Below, piece by piece: positions 5,068-21,142 of a stretch of 64,000 nucleotides of DNA; within the stretch, counting starts at the first letter, position 1; every line of letters begins with the position of its first letter. The stretch spans positions 10,775 to 74,774 of the forward strand of contig CAMBYH010000005.1 of assembly GCA_945872065.1 (NCBI GenBank). The letters run 5' to 3'. The stretch is from Arsukibacterium tuosuense. Its GTDB lineage: Bacteria > Pseudomonadota > Gammaproteobacteria > Steroidobacterales > GCA-2729495. Both the position numbers and the translations under genes were made by a program. The notes below the pieces were generated by a model, which did no database searches, was not told the origin of the DNA, and saw only the letters and a program-made list of their open reading frames with translations.

Positions 5068-5991
5068 ATGAAGCACACCCCGGCCGGCGCGGCGGATTCT
5101 AGCAAACCCGCCTTGGTGGTCGCGGCCCACGGCCGCCGGGGCCTTCTTGCGCAACCCGACGGCAGACGACTGCCCTTCATGATCCGGGGACGGCACCTGC
5201 GGGCCTACTGCGGGGACCGGGTGGCCTTCCAGGTCACCACCGCTGGCGAGCCCGTGCTGATCACGCGCATTGAACCCCGCGACAACGAACTACAGCGCCT
5301 GTCCGGGCGCGGTGGCCTGCCGGAAACGATTGCCGCCAATGTCACGCATCTCATCGTGGTCATGGCTGCCCTGCCAGCGCCAGACCTGTACCTGACAGAC
5401 CGGTACCTGTGTGCTGCCCGGCTTATGGGTGCGACCAGTGCCATCGCGTGGAACAAGTCAGACATGGCTTCCCTCCCTGCCGCGGAACTCGCCGGCTACG
5501 AAAGCCTCGGCTGTCCGGTCTGGCCCGTGTCAGCGGTCACGGGCGCCGGCATCGCTGCGCTGCGCGGGTGGATCGGCGCGGGTACCGCGATACTTGTGGG
5601 GCAATCCGGGGTGGGCAAGTCGTCGCTATTGAATACCCTGGTGCCGGGCATCGGCGCGACGACTGGCGAGATCTCCCTGTCGAGTGACGAGGGCCGGCAT
5701 ACGACAACCGCCTCGGTGCTGCATCCCCTGCCAGGTGGCGGGTGCCTGCTCGACACGCCAGGTGTCCGGGACTTTGTGCCGGCCATCCCGGAGCGCACCG
5801 CCATCAGCAAGGGCTTCGGGGAAATCGACGAGTATGGCCGTCAGTGCCGTTTCACCGACTGCAGTCACCTGAGGGAGAGTCACTGCGCCGTGCAGGAGGC
5901 CGTGAATGACCGCCTGATCGATCCACGTCGCTACGAGAGCTACCGGCGGCTGATGAACCTGGTCCGGCAGTCCGACGGGCGTGCCGGCTAG
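5068..5991 (+). CDS. rsgA: ribosome small-subunit-dependent GTPase A
   Basis: Circularly permuted GTPase: NKSD ... [12 protein letters not shown] ... DTPGVRDF. C-terminal zinc knuckle [16 protein letters not shown]. Divergent from orn as in E. coli. Confidence 0.9.
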
Positions 5992-6593
5992 TCAGCGAGC
6001 ATCGGCGTGCGCGCCGTGATGGCGTGGGACAGGGTACCCGCATCCACGTACTCCAGCTCCCCACCCATGGGCACGCCGTGGGCAATGCGCGTCGCGCGAA
6101 CCCGGTGCTCCCTGGCCAGACTGGCCAGATAACCCGAGGTCGCCTCTCCTTCAACCGTGGCACTCGTGGCCAAGATGATCTCGCGGGTGACGCCATCCGC
6201 CATCTGGGACTCGAGCACAGGAACCCCAAGCTGTTCAGGACCGATGCCATCGAGCGGCGACAGACGGCCCATAAGCACAAAGTACCTGCCCCGGTATACG
6301 CCCGACTCCTCGATGGCAACGACGTCCGCCGGGGTCTCAACGACGCACACAACCCCGGCATCGCGCCGCGAGTCACCGCAGATGGTGCAGAGTTGCGTCT
6401 CGGTAAACATGCGGCAGCGGGAGCACAGGCCGATCCTTTCCAGCGCGGCGGCCAGGCTCGTAATTATCCGCTGCGCACCCTCCCGGTTTCTCTCCAGGAG
6501 ATGAAATGCCATGCGCTGGGAGGACTTCGGACCCACGCCGGGCAGGCACCGAAGTGCTGCCAGGAGATCCTGCATCAGCGGAGTAAAGGCCAT
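5988..6593 (-). CDS. recR: recombination protein RecR
   Basis: LPGVGPKSSQRMAFHLL helix-hairpin-helix, CxxC...CxxC zinc finger (CSRCRMFTETQLCTIC), Toprim region. Confidence 0.96.
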   Translation of the reverse strand: MAFTPLMQDLLAALRCLPGVGPKSSQRMAFHLLERNREGAQRIITSLAAALERIGLCSRCRMFTETQLCTICGDSRRDAGVVCVVETPADVVAIEESGVYRGRYFVLMGRLSPLDGIGPEQLGVPVLESQMADGVTREIILATSATVEGEATSGYLASLAREHRVRATRIAHGVPMGGELEYVDAGTLSHAITARTPMLAD

Positions 6594-6608
6594 GCCAGTC
6601 GCTTCGCC

Positions 6609-6932
6609 CTAGAAGGGCAGCTTCAGGCCAGCCGGCAAGCCAAGACCAGCTGTCATCCCGCCCATCTTGTCCTGCACCGTCCGCTCAACCTTCCGCAGGG
6701 TGTCGTTCAGCGCGGCGACGAGAACATCCTCCAGCATCTCCCGGTCATCGCCGAGGAGTGAGGGGTCGATCGTCAGCTTGCGCACTTCGTGTTTGCAGGT
6801 CATGCAGATTTTCACCAGCCCACCGCCCGCTTCGCCCGTGACTTCGAGGCCCGCCAGCTCTTCCTGCGCTTTCTGCATCTGGGCCTGCATCTTCTGGGCC
6901 TGCTTCATCAAACTGCCGAGATCGGGTTTCAT
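6609..6932 (-). CDS. ybaB: YbaB/EbfC nucleoid-associated protein
   Basis: [18 protein letters not shown]...[12 protein letters not shown]. Start is the internal ATG at 6932. Sits in the classic dnaX-ybaB-recR order. Confidence 0.93.
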
Positions 6933-6939
6933 GGACTGC

Positions 6940-8547
6940 TTACTTCCTGCTTGGCGGATTCGGGTTCTTGCGGACGGACTCCGGAATGACTTCCGCACCG
7001 AACATCTCGGTCATCTGGCGCACGTTGCGGTCTGCGGCGATCAGTTCACGGGCCTGCCGCAGATCGTCGTCATCGGTCTTTGCCTGCAGTGTAGCCGGCG
7101 TCTCCTGGGGTGCCTCGGCAAGGGTGTACAGAACCTTGACGCTACTGCCCAGCCGCTCATGCAATGCGGCGGTGAGCCGGGACTGGAGGTTCTCGGTCAG
7201 CAGGTGCCCGTTGCGCTTGTCGAGAGTCAGCCGGAGTTCAAAAGGCGAATGGGCTACGACGGCACAGTGCTCCGCCAGTTGACGGGCCGCGCCATCCACA
7301 CTAAGGCTGGCAATGAACGCGGACCAGTTGCCAATATCCGGGGGGCCGGCCGGGAGCGTGGCTGAGGTCACGGAGGCAGCGGGCCGCGGCGTGGGCGCGG
7401 CAGCCCGAACCTGCGCAGAGGCACCTGTGGCGACCACCGCCTGGGGCAAGCGCTCCGGGTGAAAGGCCACCAATCGGAGCAAGGCCATCTCGAAGCCGGT
7501 GCGGGGGTCCGGTGCGAGGGCGAGATCCCGGCGACCCATGACTGCAATCTGGTACATCAGCTGCACCGTTTCCGGGGCTAACTGAGCCGCCAGCCGGGTA
7601 AGCAGGGCAACCTCATCCTCCACTGCTGTTTCAGTGTCCAGCGCCGCAGCACCTGCCACCTGCACAACAGCCACCTGTTGCAGCAGAGTGGCGAGCCCGG
7701 CGAGCACGTCGCCGTAGTCCGGCGCCAGTTCATCCAGCAGCTGCACCTGGGCCAGGAGGGCGGGCGCATCGGCTACGGCGAGCGCCTCCATGAGGGCCGT
7801 GAGCTTTCCCCGATCCAGGCTGCCAAGCATCTCCGCCACATCTGCGTCCCGCAAGGCGCCATCGCCGAACGCCAGCGCCTGATCCAGCAGGCTGAGCGCA
7901 TCCCGCATGCTGCCTGCGGCGGCGCGGGCCAGACGCACTACGGCCCCCTGCTCGACGCTGATCCCCTCGTTGCCGCAAACGAGGGTCAACCGTTCGATAA
8001 TCGTCGCCAGGGGCAGGCGCTTCAGGTTGAACTGCAGGCAACGCGACAGGACGGTGACGGGAATCTTCTGGGGGTCCGTGGTCGCCAGCAGGAACTTGAC
8101 ATGGGGAGGTGGCTCTTCGAGGGTCTTCAGCAAGGCGTTGAAGGCGGCCTTGGACAGCATGTGCACCTCATCGATGAGGTAGACCTTGAACCGGCCTGCA
8201 GCGGGCGTGTACTGGGCGTTGTCGAGCAGTTCCCGGGCATCGTCGACGCCGGTGCGGGACGCCGCATCAACTTCCAGAAAATCCACGAAGCGGCCCTGGT
8301 CGATGGAGACGCAGCTGGAACAAACCCCGCAGGGCTCCGCGCTCACTGCCTTCTCACAGTTCAGCGCCTTAACGAAAATCCGCGCGATGGTCGTCTTGCC
8401 GACACCCCGGGTGCCCGTAAAGAGGAAGGCGTGGTGGAGCTTCCCTGAATTCAGCGCGTTCTCCAGGGCGCGAACGACGTGCCCCTGGCCCGCGACGTCA
8501 GCGAAGGTCCTGGGACGCCATTTCCGGGCGAGCGCGAGGTAGGTCAT
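6940..8547 (-). CDS. dnaX: DNA polymerase III subunit gamma/tau
   Basis: [25 protein letters not shown] Walker A, zinc module CGVCSSC, DEVHMLS, SRC motif (VLSRCLQF). Confidence 0.96.
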
Positions 8548-8569
8548 AAGCCCTTGTTACAGCGGAAAA

Positions 8570-8668
8570 GTGAGCCCGCGCCAGCCGCACCCCGGCGCCC
8601 GGCATCACCGCTACCGCTGCTTCCTTCCGGACCTGACGGGGTTCACGGCTAGCCGCCGCGGGGGGACC
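8570..8668 (-). ncRNA. ffs: signal recognition particle RNA (4.5S, small type)
   Basis: The minus strand reads ...CCCGUCAGGUCCGGAAGGAAGCAGCGGUAG..., which is the conserved SRP RNA domain IV with GGAA tetraloop. 5' CCCGCG pairs with 3' CGCGGG and is followed by UUUUCC. Lies immediately upstream of dnaX. Ends are +-5 nt. Confidence 0.82.
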
Positions 8669-8774
8669 AGCGCGGACCCGGCGACAGGGTATGCGGTGGC
8701 CTCTGTTTGGGCAAGTTGCTAACCTGAAAGCCTTGCGGCCCGCAGGCCGCCAGCCAGCAAAGGTTGACGAACGC

Positions 8775-9764
8775 ATGAAACGCATAGCCTGGATCCTCGC
8801 ACTGGTGGTGGCCGTTGGAGCCGCCCTCGGCGTTGCCTACTACAACCTGTTCCTTCCCCGGCAGCAGCCGGCAGCCAACATCCAGGTGGAGATCACGCCC
8901 GAGCGGGTCGAGCGCGGCCGCTACCTGGCAATCAACGTCCTCCAGTGCGTGGACTGTCATTCCGAGCGGGACTGGGGGCTGTACGGTGGTCCGCCACAGA
9001 AACCTGTGGGTGCCGGCCGCGCCTGCCTGACCCGCGAGACGGAAGCCGCCGGCGTCAATGTGGGCCAGGAGAATTTTCCGGGCATCCTGTGCATACGAAA
9101 CATCACCCCGGACAACGACACCGGCATCGGGCGCTGGACGGACGGGGAAATCATCCGGGCTGTCCGGGAAGGTGTGGATCACCAGGGCAAAGGACTGTTT
9201 CCCATCATGCCCTACTTCGTTTACGCCAACGTATCGGACGCCGACATGGAAGCGGTAGTGGCGTACCTGCGCTCAATGCAGCCCGTGCGTTCCGCCCAGA
9301 CTCCCCAGCGGCAGGTCGATTTCCCCCTGAACATGCTTATCCAGCTCTGGCCCAAACCGGTCAAGGGGCCGGTGGTTGCGCCAGAACCCTCGGACCGGAT
9401 TGCTTACGGCCGCTATCTCGCCACCATTGCCCGCTGCGAGTTTTGCCACACGCCACGGCCCATGAACTCCATGGAAGGATTCCCCGGCCGGGAGTTTGCC
9501 GGCGGCATGCCGTTCTTTCTCACCAGCGAGCGGATCATGTACACCATGAACCTGACGCCCCACGAATCAGGTTTGGGCAACTGGACCAGGGAGCAGTTCA
9601 TCCAGTTGTTCCGCGACCGCGCGGTCCCCCGCCCGGTATCCCTCAAGGAAAACACCCTGATGAACTGGAGCGCCTTCGCCGGCATGACCGACGAGGATCT
9701 GGGTGCCCTCTTCGACTTTTTCCGCTCCCTGCCGCCGGTGCCCTACCAGCAGGAACCGATCTGA
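8775..9764 (+). CDS. membrane-anchored dihaem c-type cytochrome
   Basis: N-terminal anchor MKRIAWILALVVAVGAALGVAYY. Two haem-binding CxxCH sites (CVDCHSE, CEFCHTP). ATG at 8775. Confidence 0.8.
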   Translation: MKRIAWILALVVAVGAALGVAYYNLFLPRQQPAANIQVEITPERVERGRYLAINVLQCVDCHSERDWGLYGGPPQKPVGAGRACLTRETEAAGVNVGQENFPGILCIRNITPDNDTGIGRWTDGEIIRAVREGVDHQGKGLFPIMPYFVYANVSDADMEAVVAYLRSMQPVRSAQTPQRQVDFPLNMLIQLWPKPVKGPVVAPEPSDRIAYGRYLATIARCEFCHTPRPMNSMEGFPGREFAGGMPFFLTSERIMYTMNLTPHESGLGNWTREQFIQLFRDRAVPRPVSLKENTLMNWSAFAGMTDEDLGALFDFFRSLPPVPYQQEPI

Positions 9765-9780
9765 CCTGCGCGACACCTCG

Positions 9781-10227
9781 CTACGGAGACCGCGTGTAGT
9801 GGAGGTAGCCGCTGCGCTGGGCGACCCGATCGTAGAGGGCCCGGGCCGTTGTGTTGGTCTCGTGGGTTAACCAGTAGACGCGATCCGCGCCCCGGGCATC
9901 CGCTTCCCGATAGACCGCGGCGATCAGGGCCCCACCCAGTCCACTACCACGCTTGCTCGCGGCCACATAGAGGTCCTCGAGATAGCAGTGCTGGGTAAGC
10001 GACCAGGTGCCCCGGTGCAGCACGCAATGGGCGAAACCCGCAATCTCCCCGTTGCGCTCGGCAACCAGGCCGTAGAGGGGCTCGGCGGGATCCAGAAGGC
10101 GCCGCCAGGTAGTGGCGGTGACCTCCTCGGGCAGGACGGTTTTATAGAACTCCAGATAGCCCCTCCAGAGCGGCCGCCACCCAGCTTCATCGCCAGCCTG
10201 CAGTGGACGAATCAGAGTGTCAGACAT
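9781..10227 (-). CDS. GNAT-family N-acetyltransferase
   Basis: ~148 aa. Acetyl-CoA pocket motif RGSGLGGALIAAV and a typical GNAT beta-alpha pattern. Start is ATG at 10227 (MSDTLIRPL). Confidence 0.85.
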   Translation of the reverse strand: MSDTLIRPLQAGDEAGWRPLWRGYLEFYKTVLPEEVTATTWRRLLDPAEPLYGLVAERNGEIAGFAHCVLHRGTWSLTQHCYLEDLYVAASKRGSGLGGALIAAVYREADARGADRVYWLTHETNTTARALYDRVAQRSGYLHYTRSP

Positions 10228-10251
10228 GGCAGTGGCTCCCAAGGTTAGCGG

Positions 10252-11184
10252 CTACCGGTCGCTCGTCAGGATATGCATCTGCCGCGCCCGGTAATCGATG
10301 ATGATCTCGTCGAGTACGCCCAGCACATCCATCCCCAGCATGATGGTTGGCCGACTGGTCATGCGCCAGTGCCGGAAGATGGAAACATCGCTGAAAGTCA
10401 GCATGGCACCGCGAATCTTGACGTTCCGTAACTGCATCGTGGGCACTACCATCCGGTCGCCGTACTCGACGTCGAGGGTGATACCAACGATCGCTGTACT
10501 CGGGTCGTCTTTCGCCTGCCGCCTCAGGGCCGTAAGAAGGGCAGCGTTACCCAGCGAATCCGGGGCGCCCGTATCGAGGATGGCGGTGGCGCGGACACTG
10601 CCAACCAGCACCTCGATGGCCAGCAAGTGACCGCGAAGGAGCGTCATGGGCTGGGTTTCGAAGCCAGCGCCCGGCCGCTCGCGCCTTGAGCGGCGGATGC
10701 TGATTGAATCGCGCTTGAAGTCGATGGCAATCCGCTTGTCCCGGAGGCCCTCGTTGCCCAGGACGCCCTCGGCACCGCCAAAGACATCCGGCATGACCGG
10801 GAGCAGGACACTGCCAAGAACCAGGTCACCGATTTCCATGCCGCTCACCCGGATAACGGGCGCCAGTGCAGTCCCTGTCACTCCGCGGACCTCCACCGTG
10901 GAGTTCGTGCGCACTTGCGGGCCAAGCGCTTCGGCCACCGCTGGCGTCACCACCGAGCGGTTGGCCCCCGTATCCAGGACGAACCGGAAAGGGCCCTGGC
11001 CATTCAGGTAGACAGGCGCCCAGATGCGCCCGATCCGGTCCCTTCGGGTCGGGGCCACGTATCGCGGCTCTGGAGCGGTAACGAGAACCTCGCTCAGAGG
11101 TGCAGAGTCCTCGCCAAAGGCGAGCCCCAGGGAGAACATATTGCCCAGCGCCAGGACTCCCAGCTGCAACACTCTATGGCTCAC
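10252..11184 (-). CDS. secreted protein with two retropepsin-like aspartic protease domains
   Basis: Signal-like N-terminus. Two D-T-G-A catalytic motifs (FRFVLDTGANRSVV and ATAILDTGAPDSLG), each in a ~110-aa unit. The first codon of the track ORF is GTG. Confidence 0.7.
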   Translation of the reverse strand: MSHRVLQLGVLALGNMFSLGLAFGEDSAPLSEVLVTAPEPRYVAPTRRDRIGRIWAPVYLNGQGPFRFVLDTGANRSVVTPAVAEALGPQVRTNSTVEVRGVTGTALAPVIRVSGMEIGDLVLGSVLLPVMPDVFGGAEGVLGNEGLRDKRIAIDFKRDSISIRRSRRERPGAGFETQPMTLLRGHLLAIEVLVGSVRATAILDTGAPDSLGNAALLTALRRQAKDDPSTAIVGITLDVEYGDRMVVPTMQLRNVKIRGAMLTFSDVSIFRHWRMTSRPTIMLGMDVLGVLDEIIIDYRARQMHILTSDR

Positions 11185-12061: not shown

Positions 12062-12699
12062 GCCAGCGCTGACGTGCCGGAATTCCGGTAGTAAGGCGTT
12101 TCGCCAGTGGCATGGTCCGTGACATCGATGATCTCCGTGACCTCTGGCGCCACCCCGCGGACCCTTTGTTCAAATCCCTGGCGCAGGGTTGCCTGGGACC
12201 CGGCACAGCCCTGGCAGCCGCCACTCATACGGATGTAGAGGCGGTAGTCCCTGACCGCCACCAGGGCGATGGACCCGCTGTGGGCAGCCAGGGCGGGATT
12301 TACTTCCCGGTCGAGGAGCAGCTGGACCACGCTGCTGATCTCGGCGGCACTCCGACCCTGGACGCCGGAACCAGTCAGGGGGCGGACGACGAGAGGAACC
12401 CCACTCCGCAACTCGCTTCTGAGGACGGCAGCAATCAGCGGCTTAAGCTCTGGCCAGGCAGCCTCCCGGGTCTTGCCGACCGCCATGACCCGGTCGGCCA
12501 CCAGTACATGGATCACGCCCGGCAGCTCGAACAGGCGGGCGATGAGAGGGGCTCCGGCCGCCTGCTCCGCGCTGGCAAAGAAGTACTCGCCGTTCTGACT
12601 CAGACTCTGGCTGAGAGTGAATTTGCAGGTGTCCGGATCAGCCAGGGAGATCTCTGCCCGAATCGCGACCGGTGCATTGACCTGCACCCCATCAGACAT
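12058..12699 (-). CDS. NifU/Nfu-type Fe-S cluster carrier
   Basis: C-terminal Nfu domain with the CxxC motif MSGGCQGCAGSQATL. Start ATG at 12699 overlaps the Mrp stop by 8 nt. The longer track ORF (to 12876) lies inside the Mrp gene. Confidence 0.85.
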   Translation of the reverse strand: MSDGVQVNAPVAIRAEISLADPDTCKFTLSQSLSQNGEYFFASAEQAAGAPLIARLFELPGVIHVLVADRVMAVGKTREAAWPELKPLIAAVLRSELRSGVPLVVRPLTGSGVQGRSAAEISSVVQLLLDREVNPALAAHSGSIALVAVRDYRLYIRMSGGCQGCAGSQATLRQGFEQRVRGVAPEVTEIIDVTDHATGETPYYRNSGTSALA

Positions 12700-13927
12700 C
12701 CTCGGCCACCAGGGCGCCACTACGCTCGCCAAGGGAACGAAGGTGATCGAAGGAATACAGCCCGGAATTGTGCCCGTCGTTCCAGTCGATGCCGATCGCG
12801 TAGTTGCCCACACTGGCAAGCACGCGAGGAGTGACATCGGCCCTGACGGTGCTGGGGTCCAGCAGCTTTCTCCCACTCATTTCCTCTATGCACAGTGCGC
12901 AGCGACAGGCGAGCCGCAGGTCCCGGACATCGAAGTGGTCCTGGCGCCCGTCCTCCCACAACACGGCCAGCGTACGCAGGTCGTGCCGCCTGAGGCCTAT
13001 GGGCCGCACAGGACTTCCCGCGGGCCGGGCGGCACTTGCCACCCAGCCGGGCGCTCCCTCGTTGGCATCCCACCGCCAGGCAAAGGGCTTGAGCACGCCA
13101 CTGCTCGCCTTGTCGAGATACGCTTCCAGCTGCGCCGCCAGTGCCCCGTAGGCCCGCGCGGCAACGGACTCGGGTCTGGCAATGACAATGGGGCAACCCT
13201 CATCGCCCCCGGTCACGATCTCGGCGTCGAGGGGGATGGCGCCCAGGAACGGCACCTGCAACTGCTGGCTCATGCGCTCGCCGCCGCCACGGCGAAAGAC
13301 ATCCGTGGTCTCGCCACAGTGTGCACAGGTGAACCCGCTCATGTTTTCAATCACGCCCAGGATGGGCACATGGACCCGCTCAAACATGCGGAGCCCCCGG
13401 CGGGCGATCTTCAGGCTGACGTCCTGGGGTGTTGTCACGATGACAGCCCCGGACAGGGGTACGCTCTGGGCGAGCGTGAGCTGGATGTCACCAGTCCCCG
13501 GGGGCAGATCCAGGAGCAGGAAGTCGAGCACGCCCCACTGGGTGGCCCCGATAAACATCTTGAGATATTTGCTGACCATCGGGCCCCGCAGCACCGCCGG
13601 ACTGTCGTCATCGGTGAGCATGGCCATCGACATCGTGCCAATGCCATAGCGCTCCACGGGCAGCGCCTGGCCCTCGGGTGTCATCGCTGGTGGCTGGCCA
13701 CTGGGGATACCGAGCATCCCCGGGATGCTGGGACCCAGGATATCCGCGTCTACCAACCCGACTCGCGCCCCCCGCTGGCGCAGCGCGAGGGCCAGGTTGA
13801 CGCTGACCGTCGATTTGCCGACACCACCCTTGCCACTCGCCACCGCAATGACGTGGCGGATGCCCGGTAGCTTTTCCCCGGTTGATCCGGTCTCTGCACT
13901 GGTGGAACCGGTAGTTGTGTTTGCCAT
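12692..13927 (-). CDS. apbC: Mrp/ApbC-type Fe-S cluster carrier ATPase fused to a C-terminal DUF971 domain
   Basis: Deviant Walker A VASGKGGVGKST, CxxC site FTCAHCG, and a C-terminal ~90 aa with LACRCALCIEE and GNYAIGIDWNDGHNSGLYSF (DUF971-like). Start ATG at 13927. Confidence 0.9.
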   Translation of the reverse strand: MANTTTGSTSAETGSTGEKLPGIRHVIAVASGKGGVGKSTVSVNLALALRQRGARVGLVDADILGPSIPGMLGIPSGQPPAMTPEGQALPVERYGIGTMSMAMLTDDDSPAVLRGPMVSKYLKMFIGATQWGVLDFLLLDLPPGTGDIQLTLAQSVPLSGAVIVTTPQDVSLKIARRGLRMFERVHVPILGVIENMSGFTCAHCGETTDVFRRGGGERMSQQLQVPFLGAIPLDAEIVTGGDEGCPIVIARPESVAARAYGALAAQLEAYLDKASSGVLKPFAWRWDANEGAPGWVASAARPAGSPVRPIGLRRHDLRTLAVLWEDGRQDHFDVRDLRLACRCALCIEEMSGRKLLDPSTVRADVTPRVLASVGNYAIGIDWNDGHNSGLYSFDHLRSLGERSGALVAEDV

Positions 13928-14112
13928 GAAAACTCTGCCTGCAGCAATTGGGACCGCTTCGGTACGATATTCGGCCGTTGAAGGGATCACTGTCAAACCC
14001 CTCGGCAAATGGGGCTGACGGTAGCCCATTTCAATTATAGTGACAGTTCACTTCCGGCAGACCTGGCGCCCGAACGCGGCTACCGCTTGGCTGCAACTTT
14101 ACGAGGAATGAC

Positions 14113-14415
14113 ATGCGTACTATCCCTGAGTCCGTGCTTCTCAGTCTCGCACTTGGCGCACTCCTGCCCGCCCTGGCGGCCGCCGATGACAGCAATATGA
14201 TGCCCGCCACAGGAACCGACAGCTTTCGGTGTGGCAGTCACCTGGTCGAGAACGGCATGACCCTGGCCAAAGTTCAGGAGTACTGCGGTGTTCCCACCCA
14301 GCAGACGTCCGATCGATGGTTTTACGATCGGGGACCGGACAAGTTCCGGATCATTATTCACGTCCAGCCGGACAACACCGTGGGCATGATCGAGGAACAG
14401 CAGCCGCAGCAGTAG
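14113..14415 (+). CDS. small secreted DUF2845-like protein
   Basis: 100 aa. Signal peptide ending ALAAAD, two Cys (FRCGSH...EYCGVP), and W.YDRG...F motif. GAGGA RBS upstream. Lies 10 nt before the next gene. Confidence 0.7.
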   Translation: MRTIPESVLLSLALGALLPALAAADDSNMMPATGTDSFRCGSHLVENGMTLAKVQEYCGVPTQQTSDRWFYDRGPDKFRIIIHVQPDNTVGMIEEQQPQQ

Positions 14416-14425
14416 GCTCCGTTTC

Positions 14426-15823
14426 GTGGTCCTGAGCAGCCTGACCCAGTTCCACGAAAATCCCGTGGTGATCGCCTGGTGGCGGGCCCGCCTGGGCAGG
14501 GCGCTCACAGGCTTTACCCCAGCACGGCGCCGGGGACTCCTCGCCGCAGGTGCTGTGGTTTTCGCTTTTACCCAGACGCTGCGCCTGCTGAAAAAGGCCA
14601 ACGAGTTGCCGGTGCCCACAGATCTGCTGGGCAAGGCCAGCGTGATCCTGGCGGGCTTCGGCATTCTGTGGCTGCTGTACCGGGCCGCCCTCGCCTATCC
14701 CGCCCTTCCTGCTGGCATTCGCCGACGACCCCAACTCACCCTGCACCTGGCCTACTGGACCGTCCTGGTGGTGCTCTGGAACACCGCCCCGACCGGCAGC
14801 TACTGGCGGGGGGTCCTGCTCGGGTTAGCGGTCGTGTTTCCCTTTCTGATCTGGCGGTGCGGCTACCTGCTGCTCGCGGGTCAGCAAGGCCGTATGGGTG
14901 GCAGCCGCTTCACCGACCACCTCCTCTACCTGTGGCCAGTGTACGGCGGCTCCCAGACCCCCTACGGCAATGGCCATGGCTACCTGTCCCGCTACGAGGC
15001 GAAAACCGACGAGCAACTGGCCAGATCCCAGCTGGCCGGAATCAAGCTGATCCTGCTGTCCTTCGTCTGGGGCGCACTGGCCGACCTGATGGCAGCGGTG
15101 TACGGACCAGGCACTGACCTGAGCGGGACCCTCGCCGGAACCCTGGCCGGAAGCCTTGGTGAGCAGCCGATCACCGTTCCCAGACTGCAGGAGATGGTGA
15201 CCGGTCAGACCACGGCGCCCCTGTGGGCTGCCTGGGCGAGCATCTACTGCGAGCTTTTCTGGCAGGTGCTGCGCCATGCCGCCCGGGGCCACGAGATCAT
15301 TGGCATTCTGCGGGTGTTCGGCTTCAACGTGTTTCGTAACACCTACAAGCCGCTTCTGGCCCAGTCCATCGTCATGTTCTGGAATCGTTACTACTACTAC
15401 TTCAAGGAACTCCTGGCGACCTTCTTTTTCCTGCCCACGTTCACCAGCCTGGGCGCTGGACTCCGGAAATGGCCCGCCCTACGGTTGTTCCTGGCGGTAT
15501 TCGCCGCGGCCTTTGTGGGCAACATGTACTACCACCTGCTCCAGAGAACACCCCTGCTGGTCGGCGGCGAGGTCTTCGAGGCACTCTATGACCTGCGCTC
15601 CCGGTTCTTCTACTGTTTCCTGCTGGCAGCAGGGATCTTTCTCTCGATGCGCCGGGAGCAGCGTCGTTCCCGTCAGGCCCTCGTCCCAGGGCCAATACAG
15701 GTGGTCCTGAACATACTCGGCGTGTGGACCTTCTTTGGCCTGATCAACATCTGGAACGTGCGCAGTGACGCGCCATTTTTCGTCCGGGTAGAATTCTTCC
15801 TGGGTCTTTTCGGGCTTGCATAG
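14426..15823 (+). CDS. polytopic membrane protein, divergent MBOAT-like (DltB/AlgI-like) acyltransferase
   Basis: ~10 predicted TM helices. The block GHEIIGILRVFGFNVFRNTYKPLLAQSIVMFWNRYYYYFKELLATFFFLP is collinear with the MBOAT signature (..AIG...FGF....NF..PY.A.SI..FWRRWH.SLS.WLRDY.YIP). The first codon is GTG, so the start is uncertain. Confidence 0.62.
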   Translation: MVLSSLTQFHENPVVIAWWRARLGRALTGFTPARRRGLLAAGAVVFAFTQTLRLLKKANELPVPTDLLGKASVILAGFGILWLLYRAALAYPALPAGIRRRPQLTLHLAYWTVLVVLWNTAPTGSYWRGVLLGLAVVFPFLIWRCGYLLLAGQQGRMGGSRFTDHLLYLWPVYGGSQTPYGNGHGYLSRYEAKTDEQLARSQLAGIKLILLSFVWGALADLMAAVYGPGTDLSGTLAGTLAGSLGEQPITVPRLQEMVTGQTTAPLWAAWASIYCELFWQVLRHAARGHEIIGILRVFGFNVFRNTYKPLLAQSIVMFWNRYYYYFKELLATFFFLPTFTSLGAGLRKWPALRLFLAVFAAAFVGNMYYHLLQRTPLLVGGEVFEALYDLRSRFFYCFLLAAGIFLSMRREQRRSRQALVPGPIQVVLNILGVWTFFGLINIWNVRSDAPFFVRVEFFLGLFGLA

Positions 15824-15846
15824 ACGGTTTCCGGGAAATCAGAGCC

Positions 15847-17379
15847 ATGTTTCTTGATCTCAAGGTTGGTGCGCTGGCAGAGCCCATCAGTGGTCGGCGC
15901 TGGGCGGAGGCGGATGTGGTCCAGGAAGTCGCCCGGCGGACGGCCCGCTTTCAGTGTCAGGGGCTGGCGGCCGGTGATCGGGTGTTTCTGCTGTTCGGGA
16001 ACCGCCTGGAGTTCTTCGCCGAGTTGCTCGCCATCTGGCGGCTGGGCGCCTGCGCCGTTCCCGTCGACGCACGGCTTACGGCCTTCGAAGTCAGTACGCT
16101 CATCGCTGCCGCGAGCCCGCGTCTTGCCGTCGTGGACGAGGCGACAGACGCCGCAGTCATCGCAGTGCTCAGCGCCGCTGGCGTCGCAGCCGTGGACACG
16201 AGGGAGACGGGCAGCCAGGAGGCCACTGTCGGGCTGAGCAGGCTGGACGATGACGCACTGATCCTGTTCACCTCGGGCTCCACCGGCGCCCCGAAGGGCG
16301 TCATCCACACCCATCGCTCCCTGCGCGCCAGATGGCTGTCGCTGCGGGATCACCTCGGCGTGGCCGCCTTTGCCCGCAGCCTCTGCCTGCTGCCCACCCA
16401 CTTTGGGCACGGGCTGATCTGCAACAGCCTTTTCCCCTGGCTGGCAGGCCAGGACCTCTACATCACGCCACCCTTTCGGGCCGACATCCTCATGCGTCTG
16501 GGGGCGCTGGTGGATGAACACGGCATAACCTTCATGTCCTCGGTGCCGTCCCTGTGGCGACTGGCCCTGAAGATGTCCCGGCCTCCCCAGGGCCGCACCC
16601 TTCAGCGCATCCACTGCGGTTCGGCGCCCCTGTCGGCTGCGGTCTGGGAAGACATTCGCGCCTGGACCGGCACCCGCCAGGTGTGTAACGCCTATGGCAT
16701 CACGGAAACGGGGAGCTGGGTCGCGGGACTCAGCAATGCGGATACCCCAGCGGAGGACGGGCTGATCGGCGGTGGCTGGGGAGCTTTGATCCGGATCCTC
16801 AGCACGTCCGACACCTCAGTCCCTCTGGATGGCAGCCTTGAATGCGCCGTCGGGGACGCTGGCTTCGTCTGGCTGAACACGCCAGCACTGATGAAGGGCT
16901 ACTTTCAGCGCGACGACCTGACCCGGCAGGCCGTGGTGGACGGCTGGTTCCTGACGGGGGACATCGGCTTCCTTGATGACCGGGGTCGCCTGGTCCTCCG
17001 CGGCCGGGAGCGGGACGAGATCAACCGGGGCGGTATGAAGATCTATCCCGGCGATGTGGATGCAGTCGTCGAACGGTTTCCGGGCGTGACCGACGTGTGC
17101 ACGTTTGCCCTTGACGACGAGATGTATGGCCAGGCCGTCGGTATCGCCGTTGTGCTGAATGCCCGGGATGATGCAACCATTCGTGCCCTGTATCGCTGGA
17201 TGACAGAGCACCTGGCGGCCCACAAGATGCCGGGCCGCTGGTGGCTCGTGGACGAGATCCCCCGGACGTCCCGGGACAAGATCAATCGTGATGAGGTCAA
17301 GTCGGCCTGCGTAAACGAGCCCGGACTGGAGCTGATTCGCATCCTCGGCGCCAGCGGGAACACGGCAGGAAACCCATGA
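15847..17379 (+). CDS. adenylate-forming enzyme (ANL superfamily; DltA/acyl-CoA-ligase-like)
   Basis: Core motifs LILFTSGSTGAPKGV, YGITETG, GWFLTGDIGFLDDRGRLVLRGRERDEINRGGMKIYP and PRTSRDKINR. Confidence 0.9.
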   Translation: MFLDLKVGALAEPISGRRWAEADVVQEVARRTARFQCQGLAAGDRVFLLFGNRLEFFAELLAIWRLGACAVPVDARLTAFEVSTLIAAASPRLAVVDEATDAAVIAVLSAAGVAAVDTRETGSQEATVGLSRLDDDALILFTSGSTGAPKGVIHTHRSLRARWLSLRDHLGVAAFARSLCLLPTHFGHGLICNSLFPWLAGQDLYITPPFRADILMRLGALVDEHGITFMSSVPSLWRLALKMSRPPQGRTLQRIHCGSAPLSAAVWEDIRAWTGTRQVCNAYGITETGSWVAGLSNADTPAEDGLIGGGWGALIRILSTSDTSVPLDGSLECAVGDAGFVWLNTPALMKGYFQRDDLTRQAVVDGWFLTGDIGFLDDRGRLVLRGRERDEINRGGMKIYPGDVDAVVERFPGVTDVCTFALDDEMYGQAVGIAVVLNARDDATIRALYRWMTEHLAAHKMPGRWWLVDEIPRTSRDKINRDEVKSACVNEPGLELIRILGASGNTAGNP

Positions 17380-17654
17380 CCGCGACCCGGGAGCAGCGCC
17401 TGGAGCACCTGCAGAACTTCCTGCGCAGCATTCAGAAGCCCGGCACGCCCCTCGGCAGCGTCGGCATCGACGACAGCCTGGTGGACTCAGGCCTCATCGA
17501 CTCCCTCGCCATCGTCGAGATCGTGGCTTATCTCGAGGAGACCTATGGGCTGGACTTTGCGGCCCGGGGTATAGATCCGGAAACCCTGGCGTCGATGGGC
17601 AACATTCTTGCCCTGATAGCCGCCGCCGGCGCAACCTCCGCAACGCCGTCCTAG
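17376..17654 (+). CDS. acyl/peptidyl carrier protein (phosphopantetheine attachment)
   Basis: 92 aa with a four-helix carrier pattern and GLIDSLAIVEIV (DSL serine). The ATG overlaps the ligase stop (ATGA). Confidence 0.85.
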   Translation: MTATREQRLEHLQNFLRSIQKPGTPLGSVGIDDSLVDSGLIDSLAIVEIVAYLEETYGLDFAARGIDPETLASMGNILALIAAAGATSATPS

Positions 17655-17670
17655 CGAGGGGTTCCGACCC

Positions 17671-19584
17671 ATGCTGCTTGCCCGGTGGGGCTTCATTCTG
17701 CGGCGCCTTGGCCTCGTGATGCTTCTCTACAGCGTCCTGCGCTGCCTGTTTTTCGGCTTCAACCAGTTACTCTACGGCGAGGCAACCGTCGGGGAAGTCG
17801 CCCGGGCATTTCTCTACGGCCTCCGGTTCGATCTGTCGGCGACGGTCGCAACCAATGCCATTTTTCTGCTTCTGTGCCTGCTGCCCCGGCAGCAGCCCAT
17901 GGGTGCTGGCTATCTGCGGCTCCTGAAGACGGTGTTCCTGGTCCTGAACATTCCGTTTCTGGTGATCAATGCCGTAGACCTGGAATACTTCAGTTTCAAC
18001 GGCAGGCGCTCCACCCTGGACCTGCTCAGCCTGGCTGGGGACGCGGGGGTCAAGTGGCTGGGACTGATCACCACCTACTGGCCCGTACTGCTGATCAGCA
18101 CACTGCTCGGTGCCGCACTCTGGCTGTTCTACGGCCGAACCAGTGCAGCCACCTCCGCGCCCGCTCCCCGGCCCCGGCTGGGGCTGGCCACCTGGGCCAC
18201 GAACCTTATCGTCGGTATCGCTCTGGCAGTCGTGGCGGTCCGCGGTGGCCTCCAGTCCAAGCCCATCAGCTCGGCGGATGCCGCCTCCCTCGGACGAAGC
18301 GAACTGGCTCAGCTGGCACTCAATTCTTCGCTGACCGTGATCAGGAGCTACAAGAAATCGCCACTCAAGCGTTACAGATACGTGGAACCGGCGGCGCTGC
18401 TGCCCTACCTCCGCAACCAGATCGACGGCCAAAAACTGATCCCGGATGTCCCCCGGACCGACAACGTCGTCATTCTGATTCTGGAGAGCTTCTCCGCAGA
18501 GTACTGGGGTGCAGGCAATGGGGGCGGTCGCTATACGCCGTTTCTCGACTCACTGGCCAGTCAGTCCCTGTTCCTGCCTCAGCACTACGCGAATGGCCGG
18601 CGATCCCGGGATGCGGTGCCCGCCATACTGGCCGGACTGCCGGCACTGATGACCGATTCGGTGCTCGATTCGCTCTATGCCGCCAACGACATCGTCGGCC
18701 TGGGGACTCTGCTGGCGCCACGGGGCTACACCACAAGTTTCTTTCACGGCGCGACGACGGGCACCATGCACTTCGATACGTTCACGCGGATTGCCGGCAT
18801 CAACCACTACTTTGGCCTGGAAGACTATCCGGATCCGCAGGACTTCGACGGGCGCTGGGGAGTCTTCGACGAGCCCTATCTGCAATACGTGTCCCGGGAA
18901 CTGAGCCAGCAGAAACCGCCCTTCGCCGCAGTCATCTTTACGGTGACCTCCCACAACCCCTACCCCATCCCTGAAAAGCATCGGGGCAGGTTCAGCAAGG
19001 GCACCCTGCCGATTCACGAGACGATTGGCTACACGGACCATGCACTCGAGCAGTTTTTCGCCACGGCAAGCAAGCAGCCCTGGTTCGCCAACACGCTCTT
19101 CATCATTACCGGCGACCATACCGAGACACTGGAAACACCTGACTATGTGAATGCGCTGGGTCAATACCGGGTCCCCCTGCTGGTCTACAAACCCGGCGTG
19201 ACGTTTTCGGGGGTCGATCCCAACCGGGTGACCGAGCACGCGGACATCCTGCCGTCGGTTCTCGATTATCTCGGGATCGAACCCGGGCGCCGCCTGCTCT
19301 TTGGCAAGTCCATTTTTCGCTCCGGGGAAGGGCGTGCGTTCCTGAACGCCAATGGCCACTACTGGCTGGTCCGCGGTGACGATGCCCTCGAGTTCGTGCC
19401 GGGCAGCCTGAGCCAGACGTTCCGTCTCGACACGGACCGGCAGCTGAAAGCACCCGGCAAAGCTGAGACACCCCGCCGGGCGGAACTGGAACTGGAGGCC
19501 AAGGCCCTCATTCAGTACTACAACGACGGCGTCATGGACAACCGGCTCTATGACACGGGGCTGGCGAGACCTCAGGCACCCTGA
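17671..19584 (+). CDS. LtaS/OpgB-type (sulfatase-superfamily) membrane phospho-alcohol transferase
   Basis: ~5 N-terminal TM helices plus an extracytoplasmic alkaline-phosphatase-like domain. Metal/nucleophile motifs VVILILESFS, FFHGATTGTMHFDTF and FIITGDHTE. Confidence 0.85.
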   Translation: MLLARWGFILRRLGLVMLLYSVLRCLFFGFNQLLYGEATVGEVARAFLYGLRFDLSATVATNAIFLLLCLLPRQQPMGAGYLRLLKTVFLVLNIPFLVINAVDLEYFSFNGRRSTLDLLSLAGDAGVKWLGLITTYWPVLLISTLLGAALWLFYGRTSAATSAPAPRPRLGLATWATNLIVGIALAVVAVRGGLQSKPISSADAASLGRSELAQLALNSSLTVIRSYKKSPLKRYRYVEPAALLPYLRNQIDGQKLIPDVPRTDNVVILILESFSAEYWGAGNGGGRYTPFLDSLASQSLFLPQHYANGRRSRDAVPAILAGLPALMTDSVLDSLYAANDIVGLGTLLAPRGYTTSFFHGATTGTMHFDTFTRIAGINHYFGLEDYPDPQDFDGRWGVFDEPYLQYVSRELSQQKPPFAAVIFTVTSHNPYPIPEKHRGRFSKGTLPIHETIGYTDHALEQFFATASKQPWFANTLFIITGDHTETLETPDYVNALGQYRVPLLVYKPGVTFSGVDPNRVTEHADILPSVLDYLGIEPGRRLLFGKSIFRSGEGRAFLNANGHYWLVRGDDALEFVPGSLSQTFRLDTDRQLKAPGKAETPRRAELELEAKALIQYYNDGVMDNRLYDTGLARPQAP

Positions 19585-20624
19585 CCAGCACCGGGAGTCT
19601 GGCCTGAACCCTGCGCCTGGGAATCGTCCCGGTTGCTGGGACTGCGGCCCGTCCAGCGCCGGTAGGCCCGGGAAAAGTTGCTCTGATCCGAGAAGCCCAG
19701 CAGGTAGGCAATTTCGGCCTGGCTAAAGCGGGCTTCCCGGAGGTAAGCGTCCGCCAGGCTTCTGCGGGTCGCGTCGAGGACGCTGCGATAGTTGAGGCCC
19801 TCGGACTGGAGCTGCCGCTGCAGGGTGCTGAGGCTGCAGTTGAGACGGGCGGCCACGGTCTCCTGGCCCACCTCACCGGTGGGCAAGAGGTCACGCAGGA
19901 TGCGCCGCACCCGGGTCGCGACGGGCTGCGGCTGTAAATCAGCTATGTAACGCTCCGCCAGTTGATCCATGAGGACGGATACATCGGGATTGTCCGTCGG
20001 CAGGACCGCCTCGGCAGTGGCGGTATCGAGCCGCAGGCCGTTCGTTGCTGCATCGAACTCTACGGGGACACCGAACGCGGCCTGGTAGACCGCAGTGGTG
20101 GCGCGGCACGGATGCCGGAGGGACACGCCACGCGGCCTTACGGGATGCCCCGCTGCCCGCTCAGCGAGGGTCAACAGGCCCATCAGGCTCGCGTCGATCC
20201 CCGCGTCGTGGGGCTGCTGGGCAGGATCGGGAAACGCCGCCGTGAACCGGCAGCCCGCGCTGGATGACATAACGCCCGCCGCGATGGGCAGCGTACTGAG
20301 GACCTTTACGTACCTGCAGTAGCGTTGCAGCGCTTCTGCCAGCGTGCGACTGCTCATCCACGCGTATCCCAGTGCGTGCAGGCCCTCGGGCCGGACCCGC
20401 CGTCCGACTTTCAGCCCCAGCGCCGGGTCCCCGGTGGCTGCCACTGCCCCCTCCCAGAGCCGCCGTGCGGCGCCTTGGGAAACCCGCGCGCCCGACTGGC
20501 GCGTGCGGTCCAGGGGCACCCCCGCGTCTGCAAACAGGGGGCCTGGATCTTTCTCGTAGTCCTCATCCAGCACCTCCGCCAGATAGCGCAGGGCCGTCGC
20601 CAGGTTTGTGGCTTCCAGGAGCAT
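19572..20624 (-). CDS. AraC-family transcriptional regulator (N-terminal AraC-binding-like domain)
   Basis: C-terminal dual HTH (LSTLQRQLQSEGLNYRSVLD...IAYLLGFSDQSNFSRAYRRWTGRSP). Start is the internal ATG at 20624. The 3' end overlaps the LtaS-like gene by 13 nt (convergent). Confidence 0.85.
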   Translation of the reverse strand: MLLEATNLATALRYLAEVLDEDYEKDPGPLFADAGVPLDRTRQSGARVSQGAARRLWEGAVAATGDPALGLKVGRRVRPEGLHALGYAWMSSRTLAEALQRYCRYVKVLSTLPIAAGVMSSSAGCRFTAAFPDPAQQPHDAGIDASLMGLLTLAERAAGHPVRPRGVSLRHPCRATTAVYQAAFGVPVEFDAATNGLRLDTATAEAVLPTDNPDVSVLMDQLAERYIADLQPQPVATRVRRILRDLLPTGEVGQETVAARLNCSLSTLQRQLQSEGLNYRSVLDATRRSLADAYLREARFSQAEIAYLLGFSDQSNFSRAYRRWTGRSPSNRDDSQAQGSGQTPGAGQGA

Positions 20625-20726
20625 GGTCGTAGGCCATTGAATACAGGCTGACCTGAAATGACAAGCCGGGGCACCCCACGGGCCGTTAGGGTGCGCGCCA
20701 TTAAGATGAATGCGCTGGGCGGCACC

Positions 20727-21050
20727 ATGTCTCTGGTGGAAGCGGTGGATCGGGTGACCCGGGCAGTGCATATCGGTGCGCGCCTCCCCGGCTCGAAGCG
20801 GCCAGCCCTCGATGCGCTAGACCGCTCCTACCTGGGCGGCTTTATCGGCGCCCTGGTTGACGCGCTGGACCTGGACGATGGCTTTGCAGAACTCGTGGTC
20901 TACGCCTACCTGCTGCAGGAGGGACTGGCCGCCGATGCCGCCCGGCTGTCCAAGGTGATCCTGGTGGTCCCGGAAGATGGCGAACTGCGCCAGGCATTTC
21001 TGCGCGGGAGGGCGGAAGCCAGGACGGTGGCCGAGGGACAATCGCCCTGA
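20727..21050 (+). CDS. hypothetical protein
   Basis: Strong GC3 bias consistent with coding. I recognise no motif. Alternative starts at 20658 and 20706. The stop lies 1 nt from the tRNA-Ser 3' end. Confidence 0.45.
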   Translation: MSLVEAVDRVTRAVHIGARLPGSKRPALDALDRSYLGGFIGALVDALDLDDGFAELVVYAYLLQEGLAADAARLSKVILVVPEDGELRQAFLRGRAEARTVAEGQSP

Positions 21051-21051
21051 G

Positions 21052-21142
21052 TGGCGGAGAGGGAGGGATTCGAACCCTCGTTACGGGGTTACCGTAAACA
21101 CGCTTTCCAAGCGTGCGCCTTCAGCCACTCGGCCACCTCTCC
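21052..21142 (-). tRNA. tRNA-Ser (anticodon GGA)
   Basis: The reverse complement GGAGAGGTGGCCGAGTGGCTGAAGGCGCACGCTTGGAAAGCGTGTTTACGGTAACCCCGTAACGAGGGTTCGAATCCCTCCCTCTCCGCCA folds as a class II cloverleaf with a long variable arm. Anticodon loop TTGGAAA; CCA is encoded. Confidence 0.93.

Follow-up and report, generated by a model that had tools for sequence, protein, structure and literature searches.

What does a Dlt-like set of carrier-protein acylation genes, joined in one operon to an LtaS-type transferase, do in a gammaproteobacterium? The question is raised by a stretch of 64,000 nucleotides (nt) from Arsukibacterium tuosuense (contig CAMBYH010000005.1, positions 10,775 to 74,774), here called the window, in which five co-directional open reading frames (ORFs) lie between window positions 14113 and 19584. 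Our analysis points to the core of this operon (14426-17654), which encodes a membrane protein, an ANL-type adenylating enzyme and a carrier protein, as a carrier-protein-dependent transmembrane acylation module. The module resembles Dlt, with lipopolysaccharide (LPS) or another envelope component as its probable target. We assign this reading a probability of about 0.55.

A cryptic MBOAT fold in a conserved gene trio

No Pfam or NCBIfam model matches the 465-residue membrane protein (14426-15823, plus strand, GTG start), even at E = 10, which rules out an ordinary annotated MBOAT. The Pfam MBOAT models PF03062 and PF13813 are silent across 38 sequences, the wider-family members (37/37) included, and a profile of 38 family members searched against PDB sequences returned only spurious myosin matches (E ~0.6). 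In contrast, an AlphaFold2 model of the protein (pLDDT 81.8, pTM 0.80) has DltB as its best Foldseek match (6bug_C, E 5e-6, and also 8jem; probability 1.00, TM 0.52-0.58), followed by PORCN, HHAT, DGAT1, MBOAT7, ACAT and LPCAT3. The top 17 PDB matches are all MBOATs, with non-MBOAT folds ranking only beneath them. Profile-profile comparison with eight annotated DltB/MBOAT proteins, assembled from plasmid records, agrees with the fold. Here hhalign joined the family profile to these canonical MBOATs with a probability of 90.7% (E 1.3e-6) over 169 columns, and the homology spans the MBOAT core, including the FWNR(W/Y)(H/Y) motif.

The initial annotation had called this protein MBOAT-like, and that assignment is borne out by structure prediction and profile-profile alignment, though by no Pfam or NCBIfam profile. 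On the predicted structure, it is a cryptic member of the MBOAT superfamily whose fold is closest to that of DltB. The family to which it belongs numbers over 900 at 90% clustering; every member is unnamed or labelled 'hypothetical', and no Pfam domain is precomputed for any of them. An exhaustive hidden Markov model search recovered 870 representatives at 50% clustering.

Gene neighborhoods were sampled at 79 loci from a genome-collection scan and, for some comparisons, at a set of 85. The genes for the MBOAT-like protein, the adenylating enzyme and the carrier protein are adjacent, in either order, in ~65 of the 79 loci, and this tight co-conservation supports the earlier proposal that the three belong together. 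The 79 loci belong to Gammaproteobacteria (the nearest relatives, 92-93% identity), Steroidobacteraceae, many Betaproteobacteria (Accumulibacter, Propionivibrio, Sulfuritalea, Methylophilaceae and Rhodoferax), Binatia, Desulfobacterota, Verrucomicrobiota and Methylomirabilota. Across the 79 loci, the MBOAT-like family was seen only in diderm lineages, from at least five phyla. Cross-phylum identity is 54-76% for the adenylating enzyme, 47-68% for the carrier protein and 44-65% for the MBOAT-like protein, and reaches 66-79% for a lyase that accompanies the trio at some loci (see below). The constraint on the adenylating enzyme and the lyase is unusually strong for accessory envelope-modification enzymes.

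The five-gene unit put forward in the initial annotation did not survive the same comparison, which retained only its three-gene core. The DUF2845 gene and an orthologous LtaS-like gene occur with the trio in the two nearest metagenome-assembled genomes (MAGs) only, and an LtaS-like gene (52% identity) also lies beside the trio in one Verrucomicrobia locus. Because these companions are confined to close relatives and that single locus, the five-gene operon is a lineage-specific elaboration of the trio.

Copy number of the MBOAT-like gene also varies. The Deltaproteobacteria MAG RIFCSPLOWO2_12_FULL_60_19 (5173-10808) carries four tandem MBOAT-like paralogues with 43-45% identity to the window protein, preceded by a carrier-protein gene and a divergent adenylating enzyme (24% identity) and followed by an LtaS-like gene. 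Such an array suggests diversified acceptor or acyl specificity at one locus. Some Accumulibacter and other betaproteobacterial genomes hold two MBOAT-like copies (e.g. Accumulibacter MAG-198), one of them in a full operon of trio plus lyase. The second copy (3 loci) has an LtaS-like gene ~60-110 nt downstream with no adenylating-enzyme or carrier-protein gene nearby, and it may share the carrier protein in trans. In the Betaproteobacteria MAG MnB_8 (5748-6787), a solitary MBOAT-like gene follows immediately downstream of an extracytoplasmic function (ECF) sigma factor and zf-HC2 anti-sigma pair, an arrangement that hints at envelope-stress regulation.

The LtaS-like transferase and other envelope genes

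The LtaS-like protein (17671-19584, plus strand, 637 aa) matches Pfam Sulfatase at 4e-40 and comprises five N-terminal hydrophobic segments (residues 8-188) followed by a periplasmic sulfatase-fold domain. Its best PDB matches are VP1736 (3lxq, an uncharacterised Vibrio protein) at 113 bits and Listeria LtaS at 68 bits. Two of the three motifs originally singled out, ILESF (Glu272) and TGDHT (Asp482/His483), are intact metal-ligand motifs; the third, GATTGT, is not catalytic, and it is Ser312 in GRRSRD that aligns to the nucleophilic Thr of LtaS. Among 23 LtaS-like proteins encoded next to the module, Glu272, His428, Asp482 and His483 are invariant (23/23). The nucleophile position is Ser in the window's subfamily and Thr in 19 of these 23 proteins.

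Equivalog models score far below their cutoffs: 75.8 bits for LtaS (cutoff 970), 35.3 and 26.3 for OpgB (574 and 572) and 27.8 for YejM (825). On these scores, the protein is not an orthologue of LtaS, OpgB or YejM. In a pairwise alignment with Listeria LtaS, the query has M-H-F where LtaS has W-N-R, and these positions vary among the module-adjacent LtaS-like proteins. Trp354 and Arg356, which bind glycerophosphate in S. aureus LtaS, are among the W-N-R positions.

The subfamily of the window's transferase has at least 3029 relatives, Bacteroidota included. In six sampled contexts of relatives at 50-62% identity, the trio was present in none (0/6), and five of the six belong to LPS or glycan gene neighborhoods. 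In three of these, genes for a GT9 heptosyltransferase and an ArnT-like PMT stand directly upstream; of the other two, one has GT25 plus Wzy_C and one an MsbA-like ABC transporter with GT4 and GT2. On metagenome contigs, the GT9 and ArnT-like PMT genes precede LtaS-like relatives of 58-62% identity, and this arrangement looks like a conserved LPS-core modification cassette, for which we found no described function. As the subfamily is far larger than the module and resides elsewhere in LPS-core or glycan clusters that lack the trio, the LtaS-like protein is probably an enzyme that adds phospho-substituents to LPS or glycans and joined the operon in this lineage. It looks more like a locally recruited accessory than like a builder of polyglycerolphosphate integral to the system.

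The first ORF of the operon (14113-14415, plus strand, 100 aa) encodes a DUF2845-like protein, publicly named 'hypothetical protein'. The Pfam DUF2845 match (2e-8) is limited to 30 residues (36-65); the protein has a signal-like hydrophobic N-terminal segment (residues 3-21) and two Cys, and no relative among PDB sequences. Its gene stands beside the trio only in the two nearest MAGs. It is best regarded as a lineage-specific accessory whose membership of the system is putative.

These distributions raise the possibility that the trio is functional alone, that the LtaS-like and DUF2845 genes are envelope genes unconnected with it and adjacent by chance in this lineage, and that the acceptor is unrelated to LtaS products or LPS. 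The restriction of both orthologues to the nearest MAGs (plus the Verrucomicrobia locus for the LtaS-like gene), the trio-free contexts of the very large LtaS-like subfamily and the bare trio found at many loci are all consistent with it. The tight co-directional spacing within the operon, however, argues for a functional link: the LtaS-like gene begins 16 nt after the carrier-protein gene, and the DUF2845 gene ends 10 nt before the MBOAT-like gene.

A further argument comes from other lineages. Sulfatase-superfamily membrane transferases are encoded within the fetched flanks of 38 of the 85 loci, about a dozen of them less than 300 nt from the module. They belong to three or more LtaS-like subfamilies that are not orthologous, together with EptA-like genes, and came to stand beside the module independently in different phyla. 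At one locus, the module is flanked by an LtaS-like gene, a PAP2 lipid-A-phosphatase-like gene, EptA (638 bits, cutoff 500) and a second LtaS-like gene, with a BacA gene and a two-component system nearby; another locus has a YejM-like gene and an AT3-SGNH gene. The second Accumulibacter MBOAT-like paralogue, moreover, pairs directly with an LtaS-like gene without the adenylating enzyme or carrier protein. A reading in which the trio and these genes are mere neighbors is therefore unlikely, although it is the most serious of the alternatives. The broader idea of the initial annotation, that a phospho-alcohol transferase works with the acylation module, gains support from the same 38 loci.

The activated acid and its carrier

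The adenylating enzyme (15847-17379, plus strand, 510 aa) matches Pfam AMP-binding (1e-55) and AMP-binding_C, and its core motifs are intact (TSGSTGAPKG, YGITETG, TGD and the C-terminal catalytic Lys). Against PDB sequences, it scores 160 bits with FadD13, 154 with MatB and 140 with oxalate-CoA ligase, with FadD5 also near. Its best NCBIfam matches are the FadD7 and the long-chain fatty acid-CoA ligase models at ~230 bits (232 for the curated acyl-CoA-ligase models), and all such matches fall below cutoff. Families of adenylating enzymes and acyl carrier proteins (ACPs) associated with exosortase/PEP-CTERM systems were considered and rejected, being absent from the 25 best NCBIfam matches. The enzyme is 54-76% identical in ~60 full-length copies across phyla, and 24-28% identical in 5 loci with a divergent paralogue. 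These similarities place it in the acyl-CoA-synthetase clade and not with DltA.

The carrier protein (17376-17654, plus strand, 92 aa) matches Pfam PP-binding (2.6e-6), with the phosphopantetheine Ser in G-L-I-D-S-L. The motif G[LI][ILV]DS occurs in all 64 module-linked homologues, in keeping with its description as a 92-residue carrier with a DSL serine. Among PDB sequences, it comes closest to a type II peptidyl carrier protein (32 bits, as against 17 bits for DltC); it scores 18.1 bits with the DltC equivalog NF003464 (cutoff 68), and its BLASTP comparison with S. aureus DltC gives E = 0.29. It is accordingly classed as a generic type II carrier protein, not DltC. Its translation is probably coupled to that of the adenylating-enzyme gene via an ATGA stop/start overlap at their junction.

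A further indication of the substrate is a gene of the isocitrate lyase/phosphoenolpyruvate (PEP)-mutase family, which directly follows the carrier-protein gene at 26 loci (66-79% identity). This isocitrate lyase-like protein scores 122 bits with petal death protein, 113 with oxaloacetate acetylhydrolase and 110 with methylisocitrate lyase in the PDB. A PEP mutase or phosphonate pathway was rejected for it, with PEP mutase scoring at most 58 bits against 100-122 for C-C lyases and the RRCGH Cys motif being present. The cultured Pseudomonas pohangensis (LT629785.1, 1210387-1229754) has a compact operon of phosphopantetheinyl transferase, MBOAT-like protein, adenylating enzyme, carrier protein and lyase. 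Its phosphopantetheinyl transferase is of the Sfp/HetI type, and its carrier-protein and lyase genes overlap by 4 nt. Some kilobases upstream lie a WS/DGAT wax-ester synthase gene (5.6 kb away), two zinc alcohol dehydrogenase genes and an acetyl-CoA synthetase gene, and downstream are pgsA-like and uvrC genes.

The adenylating enzyme most likely acts on a carboxylic acid that has no alpha-amino group. Given the lyase partner and the similarity to MatB and oxalate-CoA ligase, a small (di)carboxylate would be favored over a fatty acid. The fatty-acid option nevertheless underlies a coherent alternative, akin to Aas, the Lands cycle or DGAT1, in which the FadD-like enzyme loads a fatty acid onto an ACP and the MBOAT re-acylates a membrane lipid. 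The acceptor would be a lysophospholipid, or the diacylglycerol left when LtaS- or EptA-type enzymes use the head groups of phosphatidylglycerol or phosphatidylethanolamine. The LtaS-like and EptA-like enzyme families generate diacylglycerol, so their members co-located with the module would yield this acceptor.

The matches to FadD7, FadD13 and FadD5, together with one public source that names the enzyme 'long-chain fatty acid--CoA ligase', fit this lipid recycling. So do the direct lipid acylators among the fold matches (LPCAT3, MBOAT7, DGAT1 and ACAT), the lack of both an SGNH partner and a Tyr shuttle, and the WS/DGAT gene upstream in P. pohangensis. The top fold match, however, is DltB, a polymer acylase that uses a carrier protein, and not a lipid MBOAT. 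The C-C lyase in the operon at 26 loci implies a small organic acid, MatB and oxalate-CoA ligase score nearly as high as FadD13, and for fatty acids the ordinary AcpP with an acyl-ACP synthetase would suffice. On this balance, lipid recycling appears rather improbable.

True aminoacylation of the Dlt or Alm kind, placing D-alanine or glycine on a phosphoglycerol-bearing envelope polymer or lipid A, has far less in its favor. The logic of adenylating enzyme, carrier protein and DltB fold is the same, an LtaS-type enzyme lies in the operon, and the G-[LI]-I-D-S context is common to the carrier protein and DltC. In the adenylation domain of DltA, the Asp of 'FSFDLS' binds the alpha-amino group. 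In the window's enzyme, which is only 21% identical to S. aureus DltA (51.6 bits, against 160 with FadD13), the counterpart of this Asp is the Gly of 'THFGHG'. With 172 bits (cutoff 317), the amino-acid adenylation model ranks under the acyl-CoA-ligase models; the DltC (18 against 68) and LtaS (76 against 970) equivalogs fail by wide margins, and neither DltD nor DltX was found. The weak DltA match and the Gly at the amino-binding position make aminoacylation highly unlikely, and with it both the DltA logic first proposed for this enzyme and the amino-acid part of the suggested Dlt/Alm-style (amino)acylation.

The putative active site of the membrane protein

The catalytic histidine of MBOATs corresponds to His336 in DltB, His415 in DGAT1 and His379 in HHAT. 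The family motif FWNRYY (residues 318-323) aligns to FWNRWH(289) of DltB, so that Tyr323 occupies the position of His289 in the window protein. In the literature, His336 of DltB is the invariant catalytic residue, and His289 marks a conserved second site where DGAT1, PORCN and HHAT have Asn or Asp (PMC11035591). Among close members of the family, the second-site residue is Tyr in 33 of 38 and Phe in 5. In the wider family (n = 37), it is Tyr in 26, Asn in 4, Phe in 3, His in 2, Thr in 1 and Ser in 1, a minority thus having the Asn or His that canonical MBOATs use there.

His370 is present in 38/38 close members and 34/37 distant ones. It lies 47 residues past the His289-equivalent, a spacing identical to that between His289 and His336 in DltB, and in extended and global hhalign alignments it falls opposite the canonical G-x-W-H histidine with low column confidence. 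His370 is probably the catalytic His. Together with Asn366, Tyr325, Lys327, Glu328, Arg321 and Ser407, it forms a set of residues that are invariant or nearly so in a family that diverges to 27% identity.

The C-terminus is conserved family-wide as R-[VT]-x-F-F-[LF]-[GS]-L-F-G-L-A (R-V-x-FFLGLFGLA for the protein studied here; window 15769-15820), and the FxYxxF shuttle motif occurs in the last 40 residues of none of 80 family members. The C-terminal FFLGLF resembles FxYxxF in shape, but Leu replaces the nucleophilic Tyr; it may be a remnant of a shuttle arm or a repurposed one. The family stands as a separate, unannotated MBOAT clade in which the second active-site residue is altered and the Tyr shuttle is missing. 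It is very improbable that the MBOAT-fold protein is a degenerate scaffold or transporter and that the adenylating enzyme and carrier protein serve to make something cytoplasmic, for instance a small natural product: Tyr in place of His, Asn or Asp at the second site and the lack of Pfam MBOAT signal (0/37) would fit such a role, whereas seven near-invariant residues despite this divergence are typical of an active site, and no condensation, thioesterase or polyketide/non-ribosomal peptide synthetase genes are conserved near the trio loci.

Proposed mechanism and significance

The mechanism that we propose for the acylation module is drawn at every step from homology. The adenylating enzyme would adenylate a carboxylic acid, most likely not an alpha-amino acid (a small (di)carboxylate could serve, or perhaps a fatty acid), and would then thioesterify it onto the 92-residue carrier protein. 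The acyl-carrier protein would dock at the cytoplasmic face of the MBOAT-fold protein, which, via His370, would convey the acyl group across the membrane to an acceptor on the periplasmic side. Since there is neither an SGNH partner nor a Tyr shuttle motif, the group is probably transferred directly, in the manner of eukaryotic MBOATs. The acceptor would most likely be LPS (lipid A or core), because the operon's LtaS-type gene has relatives in LPS-core clusters, or else another envelope glycolipid or glycan. The LtaS-like enzyme may add a phospho-alcohol substituent to the same molecule or to a neighboring site.

Several observations count against this scheme. At the active site, the His, Asn or Asp of MBOATs is replaced at the second position by Tyr323, so that the chemistry may differ, and three of the 37 distant members lack His370. 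The equivalence of His370 with DltB His336 draws on spacing, on invariance and on alignment columns of low confidence; when the His336 segment of DltB is aligned directly with the protein, the result is not significant (329 of 500 shuffles score equally high), and an ungapped register forced onto that segment scores -19. At the level of genes, LPS is the leading candidate acceptor on gene context only, many loci carry the bare trio with no envelope gene nearby, and the LtaS-like and DUF2845 genes may be mere neighbors of the trio. The EptA/PAP2 pair of the Rhodoferax group lies ~3-6 kb away and could reflect synteny within one clade.

A bolder extension of the acylation reading, which we regard as tentative and rather doubtful, is that the family constitutes a third mechanistic class of bacterial MBOAT. 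Members of this class would be fed by a carrier protein, would transfer directly and would place an undescribed small organic-acid ester on LPS or an outer-envelope lipid, the acid being supplied by the lyase in about a third of lineages. What is known of bacterial MBOATs comes mostly from a few polymer-acylation systems (Dlt, Pat, Alg and Wss). If correct, this class would span environmental diderms including Accumulibacter, Rhodoferax, Methylophilaceae, Binatia, Desulfobacterota and Verrucomicrobiota, and would be a counter-example to the model in which an MBOAT acts through a Tyr shuttle and an SGNH enzyme.

The family of ~870 clusters is hidden from Pfam and NCBIfam, which implies that a whole clade of Gram-negative Dlt-like machinery has been missed. 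If the module acylates LPS or the envelope, it would represent a new way of modifying the cell surface in bacteria that matter to ecology and industry, among them Accumulibacter, which removes phosphate. The presence of the module in the cultured P. pohangensis offers a good experimental entry point.

Operon layout and genomic setting

The five co-directional ORFs follow one another closely, with 10 nt between the DUF2845 and MBOAT-like genes, 23 nt between the MBOAT-like and adenylating-enzyme genes and 16 nt between the carrier-protein and LtaS-like genes. Coordinates, strand and gaps match the initial annotation exactly, as does the 13-nt overlap between the 3' ends of the LtaS-like ORF and a convergent AraC-family regulator gene (19572-20771, minus strand). 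GC content at third codon positions (GC3) is 0.73-0.84 across all five ORFs, the same as in the flanking apbC, araC and dapA genes, and no GC island is visible around the operon within the window. Because their GC3 is like that of the flanking genes, the five ORFs are genuine coding sequence and not a compositional island. A mobile or defence island was also ruled out: GC and GC3 are those of the flanks, and relatives keep the housekeeping synteny, with apbC upstream and tRNA-Ser and dapA downstream. Public names of all operon components are generic.

The operon diverges from apbC/mrp across an intergenic region (14030..14112) that is presumably its promoter site. No sigma-70 consensus promoter was found in this region, and the scan for such promoters was uninformative, with 1 promoter-like site against 1.1 expected; GAGGAA is located 5 nt upstream of the ATG at 14113. 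Terminator-like sites were all inside coding sequence.

The AraC-family regulator is QhpR/GliR-like (Arabinose_bd 7e-40, HTH_18 4e-16) and scores 209 bits with the QhpR NCBIfam model (cutoff 250). Its synteny with the operon is found only in the two nearest MAGs. It is read as a neighbor, and a role in regulating the operon is without support. Upstream, the ApbC/Mrp-type Fe-S carrier ATPase (12692-14029, minus strand) has a ParA/NUBPL domain (2e-95) and, fused in the same ORF, a C-terminal GBBH-like_N domain of the DUF971 type (7.6e-22). A tRNA-Ser(GGA) gene (21052-21142, minus strand) sits between the AraC regulator and the lipoprotein and dapA genes, and no sign of integration or of an island boundary was seen around it.

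Comparison with known systems

We found no description of the trio module among curated families or in the full-text literature searched, in agreement with the initial annotation, which could match it to no described pathway. Its closest analogue is Dlt, in which an adenylating enzyme likewise loads a dedicated carrier protein and an MBOAT-fold protein passes the acyl group across the membrane. Structurally, the membrane protein matches DltB best, and the two share the FWNR motif and the 47-residue spacing to a conserved His.

The differences are nonetheless substantial. The adenylating enzyme belongs to the acyl-CoA-synthetase clade, unlike DltA, and the carrier protein is not a DltC equivalog. 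The window protein has Tyr at the His289 position of DltB, and the Pfam MBOAT models are blind to it. Neither DltD (SGNH) nor DltX was found, ORFs shorter than 90 residues not having been searched exhaustively. The lack of DltD had been noted at the outset, and no SGNH/DltD-type gene is a conserved neighbor in the 85 loci. Real DltX ends in FIYNEF, whereas the MBOAT-like C-terminus, FFLGLF, is without the nucleophilic Tyr. The hosts of the module, furthermore, are diderms without teichoic acids.

The phospho-alcohol transferases LtaS, OpgB (MdoB) and EptA share with the window's transferase five transmembrane segments, a periplasmic alkaline-phosphatase-superfamily domain and the Glu/nucleophile/His/Asp-His set. 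The window protein differs from LtaS in its Ser nucleophile, where LtaS has Thr, and in scores far under the LtaS, OpgB and YejM equivalog cutoffs.

In AlmEFG of Vibrio cholerae, which places glycine on lipid A, a Gram-negative adenylating enzyme and carrier protein also feed an inner-membrane acyltransferase that acts on an envelope lipid, and the genomic context of the module likewise points towards LPS or lipid A. AlmE, a DltA-like enzyme, activates glycine, and AlmG belongs with the LpxL-type lysophospholipid/lipid A acyltransferases and is no MBOAT. The module differs in its MBOAT-fold transferase and in an adenylating enzyme without the amino-binding Asp.

The MBOAT-SGNH systems PatA/PatB, AlgI/AlgJ/AlgX and WssH/WssI provide a third point of reference. 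In these, an MBOAT-fold inner-membrane protein moves an acyl group to the periplasmic side, the donor being acyl-CoA, the MBOAT carrying a C-terminal FxYxxF and an SGNH partner being needed (PMC12148441). The module shares with them the MBOAT-fold movement of acyl groups across the inner membrane of Gram-negative envelopes. It differs in being predicted to be fed by a carrier protein, in lacking FxYxxF (0/80) and in having no conserved SGNH neighbor. Judged by its parts, the trio fits neither Dlt nor AlmEFG and is an uncharacterised, widespread Dlt-like system.

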